Assembly: GCA_963977005.1 (NCBI GenBank)
Contig: CAXBMQ010000001.1
Span: 347,888-411,887 of the forward strand
DNA length: 64,000 bases
Direction of reading: 5' to 3'
Origin: an uncultured Rhodospirillaceae bacterium
GTDB lineage: Bacteria; Pseudomonadota; Alphaproteobacteria; MPNO01; UBA830
Position numbers and translations under genes: made by a program. Each line of letters opens with the position of its first letter. The first letter of the stretch is position 1. Positions 11,827 to 18,011 of this stretch are shown here, piece after piece. The notes beneath the pieces were generated by a model that was not told the DNA's origin, ran no database searches, and worked only from the letters and a program-made list of their open reading frames with translations.

Positions 11827-12570
11827 TCAGGCGGCGCCGACGGCTCCGAAGGCACCGAACAGTCGCAGAAACAGGACAGTCGAATACCCCCCTATGAGTA
11901 TCGTGAACACACGGTCGAAGACGGGCGACGTGATTGCTTCGAAGACGTGCCGTTCGATGATCACGAAGATCGCCCCCGCAAGAAGCGCATAGCCCAGCTG
12001 TTCGACATGCATGACCCCGGGGGTCAGGACCGCGAGCACGGTCAGCTGGATCGTTGCAAAACAAAGGTAGCAAAACGCAATCCGGCCGCGGATCGCGACC
12101 TTGTCGTCAAATGTGCTGGCGGCGAAAATCGCAAGAAGGCCGCCGCCCAGATTGGACAGCCCGTGGACGATGCCGATCGCGAGCAGCCAGACCCGGGGGA
12201 ACCGCCGTACGTTGTCTTCCAGAAACCGGCCGCTGTTCGGCAATAGCCGGATGACGACATAGGCCAGCAGCATCAACGCGACAAAGAGCTCCAGCTCGAC
12301 ATCCAGGCCGGTCGACAAACCGATGACCAGAACGATTCCGAGAGGGAGCAGACACCAGAGTCCGAATTCTCCGACCCACTGCGCCGTGGGCAAAGTGCCG
12401 CGAAGCACCTGAAGCAGGCTTACGGCGATCGACGCGGGCAACACGATCGACAGCGTATCCGGAAACGAATACCCGAGAATGAGAAGCGTCGGCGTTCCGA
12501 GGAACAGGATGCCTATGCCGAACACCGATTGGAGCGCCGCAAAGACGGCTATGATGAGAATTTCGATCAA
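11827..12570 (-). CDS. TauE/SafE (TSUP) family membrane transporter
   Basis: 247 aa polytopic membrane protein with two internally repeated 4-TM halves, as in the TSUP family. Confidence 0.55.
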   Translation of the reverse strand: MIEILIIAVFAALQSVFGIGILFLGTPTLLILGYSFPDTLSIVLPASIAVSLLQVLRGTLPTAQWVGEFGLWCLLPLGIVLVIGLSTGLDVELELFVALMLLAYVVIRLLPNSGRFLEDNVRRFPRVWLLAIGIVHGLSNLGGGLLAIFAASTFDDKVAIRGRIAFCYLCFATIQLTVLAVLTPGVMHVEQLGYALLAGAIFVIIERHVFEAITSPVFDRVFTILIGGYSTVLFLRLFGAFGAVGAA

Positions 12571-12698
12571 TACTTACTGCTGGATTTTCTGCTTTCGCCG
12601 AACCGGCGATCTTCGCGATTTTCCACGCTACCGCAGTCCGGGTGAATCGCTTCCCCCGGGCCGGTCGATTTAAAGTCAGCCCCGTCGGGGCCGGGACG

Positions 12699-13259
12699 TC
12701 ACGCGTGCGCGCTGATGACGTCCAGATTTACCTTCGCCCTGACCTGCCGGCCCATGAGGTCGAGCAGGATGACCACACGCTGGTCGTCCGTCGCACCGTA
12801 AAACCGCCCGATATGATCGGCGAACGCGCCGGACATGATCTGTACTTCCGCGCCTTTTTCGAACGGAACCTTCCGGCCGGTCATGACCAGCCCCCGATCG
12901 TCTTCCTCGTTTCGCAGGGCATCGACGATGCCGGGCGGCACCGGCACAGGGCCGCGCTCATCGCAAATCAGATGTGCGACGCCAATGGTTGAATTGATCG
13001 CACGCCATCTCTGGTCGGGCCCGCTCATGGCGACGAACAAATAGGTCGGAAAAAGCGGCCGCGGCTGCCAGCTGACCCGGCGAGCATGACTGATCCGCCG
13101 CAGATAACGCGGCAGGTAAACGGCGAAGCCCTGGCGCCGAAGATGGAACAACGCCTTCTGCTCACCGTTCGGATGGGTCTTGGCCACGTACCAGCGCGCG
13201 GGGGCGTCGGTATCAGCGGTCACGTCGTCGGAAGACTGCCCGGTTGCGCGATCAGTCAT
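12699..13259 (-). CDS. NusG/RfaH-like transcription antitermination factor paralog (UpxY/LoaP-type)
   Basis: NGN domain signature (WYVAKTHPNGEQKA...YLP) plus a C-terminal KOW-like segment. Located at the head of the long co-directional sugar operon. Confidence 0.7.
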   Translation of the reverse strand: MTDRATGQSSDDVTADTDAPARWYVAKTHPNGEQKALFHLRRQGFAVYLPRYLRRISHARRVSWQPRPLFPTYLFVAMSGPDQRWRAINSTIGVAHLICDERGPVPVPPGIVDALRNEEDDRGLVMTGRKVPFEKGAEVQIMSGAFADHIGRFYGATDDQRVVILLDLMGRQVRAKVNLDVISAHA

Positions 13260-13906
13260 GTGTCAGCACCGGCGGCTTGCGCGACACCTTGAGCATCGGC
13301 GCGGTCAGAACCCGCTCCGGCGGGATCGCCTTGCTGAGCCCATCGAAGACCCGTTGTGCATTCTGAATATCGGTGACGACAACCGCATGGACTTTTTTCA
13401 GATCGGTCAGGCGCCGAACGACCGGTAATCCGGCAAATCGCTCCGGCGCGTCTCCATCTGCGGAGGTGTCGATAATGCCGACGATTTCCACATCCGAGCC
13501 CTCGCGGCGGCAGAGCGTAAAAATTTCTGCGAGATCGCCACACCCGGCAAGGGCGACGCGCGTCCACCGGCGTTCTTCGCAGGACTGGAAAAGCGCGGCA
13601 CACTGTTCACGCGATGAACGGAAAAAATTGAAAGACATCGAGAGATAATCGGCCGTCAGCCGGCTTTTCTCCGCAAACCCCTGGGGCGTCAGGTAATACG
13701 CATACCGGTTCGCCGGAATATGCTGAACCTTTACAAAGCCCTTTTTGACGCAGCGCTTGAGGTAGGCATTTGCGAGTCCGAGGGCGATCCCGAGTTCCTG
13801 GGAAATCGCCCGCTGCGTCGCCCGATCGTCTTCCTCGATCGCGCTGAGAACCCCGAGCGTAATGACATTCGGATCGTTCTCGCCGGTTTTGCTGCTGCCG
13901 TTCGCC
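13252..13906 (-). CDS. winged-helix transcriptional regulator with C-terminal Rossmann/CoA-binding-like domain (Rex-like architecture)
   Basis: MarR/Rex-like wHTH (TQRAISQELGIALGLANAYLKRCVKKGFV) followed by VALAGCGDLA Rossmann-like strands. Start at MANGSS; the longer ORF to 13968 is also possible. Confidence 0.55.
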
Positions 13907-13973
13907 ATATTAACGGATTCTGCCAGGAAGCTTTGAGGAAGACTTGGTCTGCGCCGCAAAGGCACCACGATTT

Positions 13974-14127
13974 GTTCACAGCGTGAACGGAGTATCGTTC
14001 AGATGGTGAACATTACTGCGTTCATTGTGTGAACGTCAAGTCCGGATTCCATCCCGGCTTTTGCCGATTCACACGGATTCACCATGTCATATAAAGTGAT
14101 TCGGCATAAGGCGTTCATCGCGTGAAT
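13974..14127. promoter_or_regulatory. array of four GTTCA-N5-TGAAC palindromic operator-like sites in a divergent promoter region
   Basis: Sites at 13974-13988 (perfect GTTCAC-agc-GTGAAC), 13997-14011, 14020-14034 and 14113-14127, the first three exactly 23 bp apart. Extra TTCAC direct repeats at 14066-14082. Confidence 0.6.
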
Positions 14128-14216
14128 CACGCGATAAGGGGAACAACACGCCGCATTTGTTGACAGTTCCCGCCAATCCAAGTACACGGACGCCGGTCTT
14201 GAATGGTCGGATTCCC

Positions 14217-15500
<1,284 letters not shown>

Positions 15501-15582: not shown

Positions 15583-17349
15583 CTAGGTATCGCTCAGCCG
15601 CGTCAGCGCCCATTTTACCTGCGCCGCGCCGTGGCTGGTCCCCCCCGCAATGACGATCTGTTCGGACCGTCGTGAATCGTGCCCGTCGCCGAGATAGATG
15701 CTTTCCTGCAAACTGGCGACGCCACCCGAACAGCGCATCCGCCAGCCCGATTTGTCAGGCAGCCGCAGCAGAACCGAGGCGCCGTCCTTCACCAGCGAGG
15801 CCTTGACCGAGGGGTGCAGGTGAAACCGGATTGCGAAGCGGTGTTCGCCCGTTCCTTCGAGCGTGTCTTCCCCGCGTACGTCGGTCCCCGATGCATTGAC
15901 GTAGATCCGGCGGCGGTGGACCAGTCCCAGTGAGGCCTGATATCCGTCATGGCTGAGATCGAGCCACGTATTGCCATCGGCCTCGAGCCTTTCCGCCGTC
16001 ACGTTTTCGGGGCGCTCCCCGATGGAGCCGTCCTCCCGCAGTTCGGTCGAATTCCGGTCGTCGACAATCATGGTCGAATGCGCGGCCGTCGACCGCTGGG
16101 CGAGCTTCCAGCGCGCATCGCGGCCGGCAAAGCCGCCGCAGTTGACGATGATCCGCTGCTTTCCGACGCTCATCTCGAAGCTCAGCGTACCGGCATGCGC
16201 GCCCTTGCCGACCGGCGACGGCGCGCCGCAATCGGCGATCACCAGCGTGCGGTTCGCCATGAAACGCTCGAACCCTGTATGCGGGGCGGAGGTCAGCGGC
16301 TTGCCGCGGGATTCCGCCTTGGTCAGGACCACATCGACCAGCCAGGCCTCGCCCTCGTTCGCTCCGTTGAACAATGCCAGCCCGCCATCGCCGTGACGAT
16401 AGAACCGCAGCATCGGCGCCGCCCGGTCGATCGCCCGCTGCAGGGCTTCGGGCACATCGATATTCGATGCCTGCAGAACCGAGCGCAGGTCGATCAGATG
16501 CCGCAACGCCGCCATCTGCGCCTGTGGACTGCGCTCGATATGACCGCCATCCGGCAGGATCTGCCTTTCGCACATCGCGGCCACGATCTTTACCAGCCGC
16601 GGCGCATACCGCGCACCGCCGGGCAGACACAGGGCGGCATAAACCCGCGCCTTGACCACCTGCATCCGGTCGATGCCGTCGGGCACGAACCGCGCAACAC
16701 GGCGCAGGTGTTTTACCTGTCGCGCAATATTGTCGAGAAACTGGGACGCAAAGGCCGCATCGGCGCCGGCCGAAACAAACTCGGCATGTGTCAGCCAGTT
16801 ACACAACCGGCGCGACAGGACGTCGGGGCGCCACGTCAGCGGATGCCATTTGGGATTTGCCGATATCCAGCTGGCGACACAGTTACGCGCCTGGATACGC
16901 GCGGCCTCGGTGCCGACCGCACGCATGTCGCGCAGCCAGTCGAACCCATGCAGTTCGGCCTGCCAGGCGGGACCGGCCTCGAGCGCTGCGGCGAAGGCAT
17001 CCTCGGCATTGAGCGTATGGTTGAGAAAACGGAACCGCCCGTCGACGAGGCCCGCGCCGCGGTCGGAGCTGCCGGGCCAGTTTTCCTCGGGAATAAGCGT
17101 CAGGGCCTGCGGTCGGCGGCCGCGCAGCGAATTGCTGTAGAACACGCCCCGGAACCAGATCCGCGCGACCCAGTAGATACCTTCGCGCACCATGTCGACA
17201 ACCGGCAGTCGGCGCCCGACAGAGCGCGAACGGGGACGGGGGCGCGGCTTTTGCTCTGCGGCAGGCGCCTTTTCTTCCGGGTTCCGGGGCTCTGCCGAGA
17301 CCAGCGGCTCGTCCGTATCGATAATCTTTGCGTCCGAAGCGTCCGTCAT
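15583..17349 (-). CDS. heparinase II/III family protein
   Basis: 588 aa. Alginate-lyase-like N-terminal alpha-toroid and heparinase II/III-like C-terminal beta domain. Conserved position upstream of rpe in many alphaproteobacteria. Confidence 0.7.
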
Positions 17350-18011
17350 TTGGCACCGCGAAGCCCGCGAATATTTGCGGCATAGCGACGCTTGCCGCCC
17401 TTGAAGGTGGCGCTGCCGGCAACAAGCACATCGGCGCCTGCGGCGATCGCGTCCTTTGACGTCTTCGCGTCGATACCGCCATCGACCTCCAGATCGATAT
17501 CCCGCCCCGAATCATCGATCGCCTCACGCAGGGTTTCGATCTTGCGCAGCATGCCGGGAATGAATTTCTGGCCGCCGAACCCCGGGTTGACGCTCATCAC
17601 CAATACGAGGTCGATATCGGACAATACTTCGCCCACCGCCGACGCGGGCGTCGACGGGTTCAGCGATACCCCTGCCTTCACGCCGAACGATTTGATCAGC
17701 TGGATCGTGCGGTGCAGATGAGGCCCGGCCTCGGCGTGCACGGTGATGATGTCCGACCCGGCATTCGCGAACGCCTCGATATAGGGGTCGACCGGCGAAA
17801 TCATCAGGTGAACGTCGAAAGGTTTCTTGCTGGCAGACCGCAGGGCCTTCACGACGTCGGGTCCGATCGTGATATTGGGCACGAAATGACCATCCATTAC
17901 GTCGACATGGATATAGTCCGCCCCGGCGCGGGTTATCGCGCGGACTTCGTCACCCAGCGCCGCGAAGTCCGCGGAGAGGATGGAGGGAGCGATTCGGACC
18001 GGTTTCTGCAC
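17346..18011 (-). CDS. rpe: ribulose-phosphate 3-epimerase
   Basis: [10 protein letters not shown] and [12 protein letters not shown] motifs. 221 aa. Confidence 0.9.

Follow-up and report, generated by a model that had tools for sequence, protein, structure and literature searches.

Proteins of the MarR type are mostly repressors, and autorepressors among them, such as Escherichia coli MarR at marO, use dyad sites of about 15 bp that lie in several copies over the -35 hexamer, the -10 hexamer and the start of their own promoter. In Rex, an N-terminal winged helix is joined to a C-terminal Rossmann-type domain, and the Rex operator (ROP) box reads TTGTGAA-N4-TTCACAA. A further group with a winged helix, TIGR04176 or MarR_EPS, and its long-form relatives provide regulators that head surface-polysaccharide loci, which are highly variable, in many Alphaproteobacteria, abundant marine lineages among them. 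E. coli RfaH is connected with the ops element, which is found on the coding strand upstream of polysaccharide genes, has the 12-nt form (ops12) GGCGGTAGCGTG (PMC5995543), and acts as a small hairpin (PMC5995543, PMC7593976). The only mention of a pairing between such a factor and a local regulator in Wang et al. 2020 is that one RfaH cluster, 'CL4', neighbours a helix-turn-helix (HTH) regulator (PMC7593976). Features of all these systems come together in a 64-kb stretch of DNA from an uncultured Rhodospirillaceae bacterium (contig CAXBMQ010000001.1; the window, whose positions are used throughout), in which a minus-strand regulator gene, followed by an RfaH-like gene, is preceded by a tandem array of GTTCA-N5-TGAAC palindromes. 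These palindromes probably constitute the operator through which the regulator represses its own promoter.

Tandem palindromes at the predicted regulator promoter

The intergenic region 13909-14216 separates two divergent genes, one on the minus and one on the plus strand, which are, as an earlier note on this DNA had described them, a winged-helix regulator and a UDP-sugar dehydrogenase, respectively. The same note had drawn attention to GTTCA/TGAAC palindromes between them, and a pattern search for GTTCA-N5-TGAAC, on which all site counts for the window are based, found three perfect copies and one with a single mismatch in this region. The perfect copies are spaced by exactly 23 bp, as had been claimed, but positions 13974, 13997 and 14020, which had been given as their centres, are their starts, and the centres lie at 13981, 14004 and 14027. 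Another perfect copy, overlooked in the earlier note, is located inside the regulator coding sequence (13605-13619, GTTCACGCGATGAAC). The window as a whole therefore contains four perfect matches where 0.04 are expected, a number reached in none of 100 shuffles, and five matches with at most one mismatch where 1.19 are expected.

On the minus strand, the elements ahead of the regulator gene follow each other in the order -35 hexamer (14039-14034), O1 (14034-14020), -10 hexamer (14015-14010), O2 (14011-13997) and O3 (13988-13974). The predicted -35 hexamer, TTGACG, shares its last base with O1 (GTTCATTGTGTGAAC), the third site of the earlier note, which occupies the spacer between the two hexamers. 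The predicted -10 hexamer, TAATGT, follows 18 nt after the -35 hexamer, and the two bases at its end also begin O2 (GTTCAGATGGTGAAC), the second site, which spans the predicted transcription start at about 14003. O3 (GTTCACAGCGTGAAC), the first site, is indeed a perfect palindrome of 6+6 bases; it would occupy about +15 to +30 of the transcribed leader, and it is kept in the closest relatives (L001, L002, L008 and L013). The predicted layout, in which O1 sits between the hexamers and O2 across the start, is of the repressor type. The array had been described as a phased one within a shared divergent promoter; the phasing stands, but the three sites belong to the regulator's own promoter.

The connection between the sites and the regulator was examined by phylogenetic footprinting of 80 loci from alphaproteobacterial genomes, collected in a genome scan, whose regulators are 50-93% identical to that of the window. 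When one mismatch is allowed, the 29.4 kb upstream of these regulators contain 195 sites and the other 569 kb contain 20, which corresponds to 6.6 and 0.035 per kb and to an approximately 190-fold enrichment. The possibility raised in the earlier note, that the motif might occur at similar density throughout, like a repetitive extragenic palindromic (REP) repeat, is not what these densities reveal, nor does the window hold any other copy. At least one upstream site is present in 78 of the 80 loci, most of which have two or three, and the distance between sites peaks at 23 bp and mostly falls within 21-24 bp. The consensus of the 195 sites is Y-GTTC-(A 76% / G 22%)-N5-(T 92%)-GAAC-R with an unconserved spacer, the base after GTTCA being T in 47% and C in 38%.

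Beyond the sites themselves, their position relative to the hexamers is conserved. The architecture C-TTGAC/GTTCA-N5-TGAAC-g-N3-TA-N2-GTTC recurs in 72 of the 80 loci, where cTTGAC abuts a site (each of its positions carrying about 2 bits of information), the TA of the -10 hexamer stands at a fixed distance, the TAnnnT hexamer overlaps the beginning of the second palindrome, and the second site follows 22-24 bp after the first (66/72). Palindromic operators overlapping the regulator's own core promoter, which are characteristic of a MarR-type autorepressor, are hence predicted comparatively, from these 72 loci and from the AT-rich relatives described below. Because the regulator and a NusG paralogue of the RfaH type are almost always adjacent (78 of the 80 loci have a homologue of the latter next after the former, and a contig end cuts one of the exceptions), co-occurrence alone cannot tell which of the two the motif belongs to. 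A more distant homologue (42% identity) on plasmid pTAD1 of Chelatococcus daeguensis has cGTTCACggcGTGAAC-N9-TTGAC/GTTCACgccGTGAAT upstream and no adjoining NusG paralogue, which argues that the motif follows the regulator; L066 likewise retains the motif and lacks an adjacent NusG paralogue.

In addition, metagenome contigs were scanned for the DNA pattern alone, defined as two tandem sites 6-9 bp apart, and 80 loci were returned. In 57 of them a homologous winged-helix open reading frame (ORF) is directly adjacent and oriented away from the sites. Most of these ORFs encode about 100 amino acids and reside on marine contigs with a G+C content of 24-28%, and since all five of the short proteins sampled score 133-148 bits on TIGR04176 (cutoff 88) and are bona fide members, the operator appears to belong to the whole MarR_EPS family. 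The AT-rich loci read cTTTACt/GTTCA-N5-TGAAC-gcTATAAt-GTTCA-N5-TGAAC-ATG, with 17-nt spacers and a near-consensus TATAAT at the place of the window's -10 hexamer and with an unchanged operator layout, and this agreement from a very distant clade strengthens the promoter assignment.

The pattern is also found in other contexts. Seven metagenome contigs (L088, L100, L123, L145, L149, L151 and L159) have three to five GTTCA-N5-TGAAC units with identical spacers and no winged-helix neighbour, and these arrays look like iterons or tandem repeats of unrelated elements. A plasmid of Sulfitobacter sp. OXR-159 (L082) has GTTCA-tctg-TGAAC, with N4 in place of N5, at 2915-2928 ahead of a bona fide short MarR_EPS gene, and an ops-like GCGGTAGCCGTG at 2973-2979 in the same leader.

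The existence of the motif, its statistical excess, its fixed position relative to conserved hexamers and its co-occurrence with the regulator family are direct observations, and with a probability of about 0.7 the adjacent winged-helix regulator uses the palindromes as a tandem operator for autorepression of its promoter. The comparative linkage and the layout agree in this with the earlier proposal of a multi-site operator tied to the neighbouring regulator and to autoregulation of the polysaccharide/nonulosonic-acid operon promoter. We infer that the regulator binds the sites and represses, perhaps cooperatively and in response to a ligand. The half-site centres of each 15-bp site are 10 bp apart, which would suit one winged-helix dimer, and adjacent dimers some 23 bp apart on O1, O2 and O3 would occlude RNA polymerase, because the three sites occupy the spacer of a sigma-70-type promoter, the -10 hexamer with the start, and the early leader. 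The repressed transcript would comprise the regulator, the RfaH-like antiterminator and the legionaminic-acid-type genes past the ops element at 12635-12624, where the RfaH-like protein would load and enable transcription to continue along the long operon. Auxiliary operators could be provided by site 4 and by the intragenic copy, and the Rossmann-like C-terminal domain might tune repression by binding a small molecule or by oligomerisation.

Several points weigh against this interpretation. The -10 hexamer of the window (TAATGT) and its 18-nt spacer are non-optimal, and the hexamers are predicted from conservation only. A spacing of 23 bp is not an integral number of helical turns, so that same-face cooperativity is not obvious, and part of this spacing is simply imposed by promoter geometry; third sites keep to 22-24 bp as well, which hints that adjacent dimers touch. 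Furthermore, 18 of the 80 pattern-only loci with room on both sides have no winged-helix neighbour, most of them being iteron-like arrays with identical spacers, and as unrelated arrays reuse the GTTCA half-site, it is not unique to the regulator family. The winged-helix domain of the regulator is modelled at low confidence, and activation in the manner of MerR is conceivable for a site that lies in a long spacer.

This last point leads to the alternative that the regulator does bind the sites but activates, or does both, either by MerR-type remodelling of the 18-nt spacer or from site 4 as a class-I activator of the dehydrogenase gene. The long spacer and the weak -10 hexamer would suit it, as would site 4 and the third site of L065-type loci, which stand at about -69 to -75 from the dehydrogenase start and overlap no promoter element there. 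Such a role is nevertheless unlikely: O2 over the -10 hexamer and the start and O3 downstream of the start are typical positions for repression, MarR-type proteins in general mostly repress, and spacer remodelling is not needed, because the AT-rich promoters with a 17-nt spacer and near-consensus TATAAT have the same operator layout. It is less likely still that a different, unlinked transcription factor binds the palindromes and that their location merely reflects shared regulation. The half-sites do occur in the unrelated iteron-like arrays, and the alphaproteobacterial LexA box, GTTC-N7-GTTC, has the GTTC word in common with the palindromes, but it is a direct repeat whereas they are inverted repeats. 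Moreover, the motif hardly occurs in the remaining 569 kb and tracks one gene family, in its short and long forms, across G+C contents from about 24% to more than 60%, and a linkage as tight as this is the pattern expected of an autoregulated factor and its own site.

The near-constant adjacency of regulator and NusG paralogue also permits the reading that the palindromes form RNA or non-template-DNA hairpins that pause polymerase or recruit it for the RfaH-like paralogue, in an ops- or LoaP-like leader; a 5-bp stem is possible at each site, and the small-hairpin behaviour of ops (PMC5995543, PMC7593976) offers a parallel. This reading was rejected and is very improbable, given that a separate, near-perfect ops element, TGCGGTAGCGTG, exists at 12635-12624 and in 41 loci, that O1 lies in an untranscribed promoter spacer, and that the motif persists in Chelatococcus and L066. 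The half-sites are also invariant and do not co-vary, and an Rfam search over 12300-14400 found nothing relevant, with two weak sub-threshold matches. Least credible of all is the view that the sites play no part in regulation and are a dispersed repeat (REP, miniature inverted-repeat transposable element or iteron) or have clustered by chance. Iteron-like arrays of these half-sites are indeed found on phage- or plasmid-like contigs, but the window has no further copies, the spacers differ between copies while the half-sites are fixed, and about 130 loci have the sites at a conserved position with respect to the promoter hexamers and the start codon of the regulator.

A MarR_EPS homologue with a Rossmann-like domain

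The regulator gene (13252-13908, minus strand) begins with the ATG at 13908 and not with the GTG at 13968, and it encodes 218 amino acids with a MarR_EPS-type winged helix at the N-terminus, a long helix, and a Rossmann-like domain at the C-terminus. A Pfam scan at E<=0.01 returned only HTH_24, which passes with 42.5 bits (cutoff 21.9), MarR_2, which stays just under its cutoff of 27 with 25.5 bits, and wHTH-PRTase_assc. The sole match in NCBIfam is TIGR04176, 'MarR family EPS-associated transcriptional regulator', with 61.2 bits (E 8.1e-17) against a cutoff of 88, and it aligns residues 17-106 with model positions 6-99 of 105. Judged by these matches, the regulator is a TIGR04176 homologue outside the equivalog boundary, that is, a long form with an added Rossmann-like domain. 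Its family is large (more than 7,800 matches), and in the winged helix long and short forms agree without exception at Q32, G40, G44, L50, G57, K60, Y69, Y71 and L73-T74-P75-x-G77. Two AlphaFold2 models, with mean predicted local distance difference test (pLDDT) scores of 66.7 and 76.5, show a helical N-terminal region, the long helix and the Rossmann-like domain, the last of which exceeds 90 in the second model.

The likeness to MarR autorepressors comprises the winged helix, dyad sites of similar size placed over the regulator's own promoter, and the predicted logic of autorepression. The differences are that a Rossmann-like domain of about 100 amino acids replaces the usual MarR C-terminal helices, that the locus has up to five sites, one of them intragenic, and that MarR_2 is not reached at its cutoff; in a profile search of PDB sequences, SarZ/MarR structures reach only E 0.18. 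TIGR04176 members are closer. They have a homologous winged helix and the same position at the head of polysaccharide loci, which in the window is reflected in legionaminic-acid-type genes downstream and a divergent TviB-like dehydrogenase gene, and the bona fide members have an identical tandem GTTCA-N5-TGAAC operator with the same promoter layout, often followed by a remote RfaH-like gene. By comparison with them, the window regulator is twice as long, has no 4-residue wing insertion, and bears the additional Rossmann-like domain. A literature search on the motif strings and on TIGR04176/MarR_EPS found neither a description of the motif nor a characterised member, and the analysis offers a concrete predicted operator for this family and its long forms, Y-GTTC-R-N5-Y-GAAC-R in tandem at about 23 bp and locked to the hexamers. 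It is a new and well supported operator prediction for an uncharacterised family, and the mechanism it implies is a conventional repressor-operator one with no sign of a new principle.

The earlier note had taken the regulator for a Rex-like protein, and this claim divides into an architectural and a sequence part. The combination of a winged helix with a Rossmann domain is seen in the models, and Rex is among the best, though weak, structural matches in Foldseek: for the first model B. subtilis Rex came out on top (2vt3_B, E 5.8e-3, TM 0.32), while for the better model generic NAD(P) Rossmann domains did, with Rex (1xcb, 3ikt) at E 0.03-0.05 and Rex C-terminal domains aligning weakly over about 110 columns (E 0.03-0.1, probability 0.96-0.97). 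By sequence the likeness disappears, as the Pfam scan gave no match to PF06971 (Put_DNA-bind_N) or PF02629, NCBIfam gave no Rex family, and the profile search of PDB sequences gave no Rex at E<=10; the DNA-binding domain is of the MarR_EPS type. The operators share palindromy and the TTCA/TGAA core. The half-sites of the window, GTTCA...TGAAC, have the opposite order to TGTGAA...TTCACA of Rex, as had been noticed, but the resemblance is limited to TTCA, since the base after GTTCA, and with it TTCAC(A), is not conserved. Membership in Rex was rejected on the absence of its domains, the orientation of the operator and the weakness of the fold likeness, and the regulator is an architectural analogue of Rex and not a member.

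The suggested response to redox state or NAD(H) fares no better. The GxGxxG-like motif of the regulator reads AGCGDLAE, in which only G122 is invariant across the family and the second glycine is G, S or T, and the acidic residue that ends beta-strand 2, D147, is D, N, S, R, K, A or H in the clade of the window and mostly D in distant members. As these signature residues are not consistently conserved, NAD(H) sensing is unsupported. Furthermore, the same operator serves short family members that have no Rossmann domain.

The RfaH-like gene and the ops element

The second gene of the operon (12699-13259, minus strand) encodes an RfaH-like NusG paralogue of 186 amino acids with a Pfam NusG match, and because it overlaps the regulator stop by 8 bp, the two genes are placed in one operon. 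Its scores remain below the cutoffs of TIGR01955 RfaH (100.8 against 144.5 bits), PRK09014 (68 against 124) and UpxY (67 against 100), so that by these models it falls outside all curated equivalogs. Beginning 40 nt after its stop (12699), an inverted repeat, CCGGGGGAA-gcga-TTCACCCGG, is followed by the ops-like TGCGGTAGCGTG (together 12624-12659, minus strand). The mark of an ops element is GGCGGTAGnnTG in the non-template strand, ahead of the genes it serves; TGCGGTAGCGTG lies on the coding strand at 12635-12624, upstream of the polysaccharide genes, and is identical to E. coli ops12 in 11 of 12 bases. Two differences from the E. coli system are evident: the RfaH-like gene is situated inside its presumed target operon, under the operator of the winged-helix regulator, and the element is extended by a conserved TTCACCCGGAc block and the upstream inverted repeat. 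In 41 loci, where it mostly comes directly behind the RfaH-like gene, the extended block TTCACCCGGAcTGCGGTAGCGTG hardly varies, and 8 of the 41 have the full GGCGGTAGCGTG. About 13 nt lie between the 3' arm of the inverted repeat and the ops pause position, and the two together could form a hairpin-stabilised pause.

The pairing with an RfaH-like gene extends to the short forms, as an iterative search seeded with the L095 protein found a remote RfaH-like ORF after the regulator in 33 of the 46 loci with room; a hidden Markov model built from GC-rich NusG paralogues is insensitive in AT-rich loci and matched 8. In L037, L040, L043 and L045 the ops element is directed into the divergent transcript, and in L031 a second promoter (TTGAC..TAgtGTTCG..TGAAC-N7-GTTCA..TGAAC) has two operators with ops directly after it, arrangements which indicate that operator and ops are distinct, modular elements. 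Additional operator-bearing promoters of the form TTGAC ... TA..GTTC were seen in or beside polysaccharide loci in L031 (6333-6369), L019 (3012-3026), L062 (8295-8309) and L108 (892-928), and they suggest small regulons beyond autoregulation.

The presence of the operator, the RfaH-like gene and ops at one locus suggests that control of initiation and antitermination are combined in one autoregulated cassette. It is possible, although doubtful, that the array is one case of an undescribed, family-wide alphaproteobacterial surface-polysaccharide cassette, in which a long-form repressor couples capsule or O-antigen to a ligand and makes use of lac-like looping. Such a cassette would consist of a promoter with O1 and O2 as a fixed operator pair, an autorepressor of the MarR_EPS type, an RfaH-like antiterminator dedicated to it and an extended form of ops, and it would range from GC-rich Rhodospirillales to marine lineages of 24-28% G+C. 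In that case the ligand could be a nucleotide, a nucleotide sugar or redox-related, and the Rossmann-like domain could tie the expression of capsule or O-antigen to it. As surface-polysaccharide loci shape phage and grazer interactions, their switch would be useful to know.

Between the RfaH-like stop and ops, a GC hairpin directly after the stop (12679-12691, minus strand, GCCCC-gac-GGGGC) has counterparts of differing sequence at the same position in close relatives, and it may be an attenuator. An ORF of 247 amino acids (11827-12570, minus strand) between the RfaH-like and LegB-like genes has no Pfam or NCBIfam match and is kept at 57-58% identity in L003, L005 and L006. Further downstream are LegB-like, LegC, NeuC, NeuB, NeuD and CBS-nucleotidyltransferase genes, a legionaminic-acid-type set. 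The genes that follow the RfaH-like gene differ widely between loci.

The divergent dehydrogenase gene and auxiliary sites

The plus-strand gene (14217-15500) encodes a TviB-like nucleotide-sugar 6-dehydrogenase with three UDPG_MGDP_dh domains, scoring 401 bits on NDP-sugDHase and 434 bits on TviB (cutoff 592). Its predicted promoter (14160-14188, plus strand) consists of TTGACA at 14160-14165, a 17-nt spacer and TACACG at 14183-14188, and where a tviB-like gene lies divergently, TTGACA is kept in close as well as distant loci. No palindrome overlaps this promoter, and therefore operator control of the dehydrogenase gene, which had been proposed as one half of a bidirectional control, is not supported. 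Of all the sites, only site 4 could modulate it, with its centre at about -75 from the predicted dehydrogenase start, similar to the third site in L065-type loci (-69 to -75).

Site 4 (GTTCATCGCGTGAAT, 14113-14127) starts 93 bp upstream of O1 and is kept, its single mismatch included, in the six closest loci. The possibility that it marks a second promoter was rejected, as no -35 hexamer is present. The intragenic site covers codons R97-Q102 (CGT TCA TCG CGT GAA CAG) of the regulator, and in the clade of the window the synonymous choices CGT, TCA, CGT and GAA are retained while flanking third positions vary; distant orthologues have neither the site nor its peptide. It is thus a possible auxiliary operator, acting by looping or as a roadblock. 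Measured from the predicted start of the regulator transcript, the centre of site 4 is at about -117 and that of the intragenic site at about +391, a geometry that resembles the lac auxiliary operators and, if both sites are bound, would permit lac-like looping. In this window, 13606-13620 within and beside the intragenic site and 14112-14126, a 15-base stretch that spans site 4, are exact reverse complements of each other.

Beside site 4, a block TGATTCGG at 14097-14104, within 14086-14112 (ATG.CA...TGATTCGG.A.AAGGC), is also kept in the six closest loci, and a comparison with the operator and the promoter hexamers showed that it matches neither. The TTCAC direct repeats of the earlier note are present as GATTCAC words at 14066 and 14076, but this word is about as frequent in the window as chance would give (9 against an expected 9.8) and is not kept in relatives with 91-93%-identical regulators, and such repeats were rejected as a second operator. 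Three GATTCAC words fall within 63 bp (14066-14082 and 14122-14128), two of them direct and one inverted and overlapping site 4. On the far side of the intergenic region, the synteny of ribulose-phosphate 3-epimerase, heparinase II/III-like and TviB-like dehydrogenase genes (15583-18011 in the window) recurs upstream of the regulator in L001, L002, L011-L013, L049 and others.

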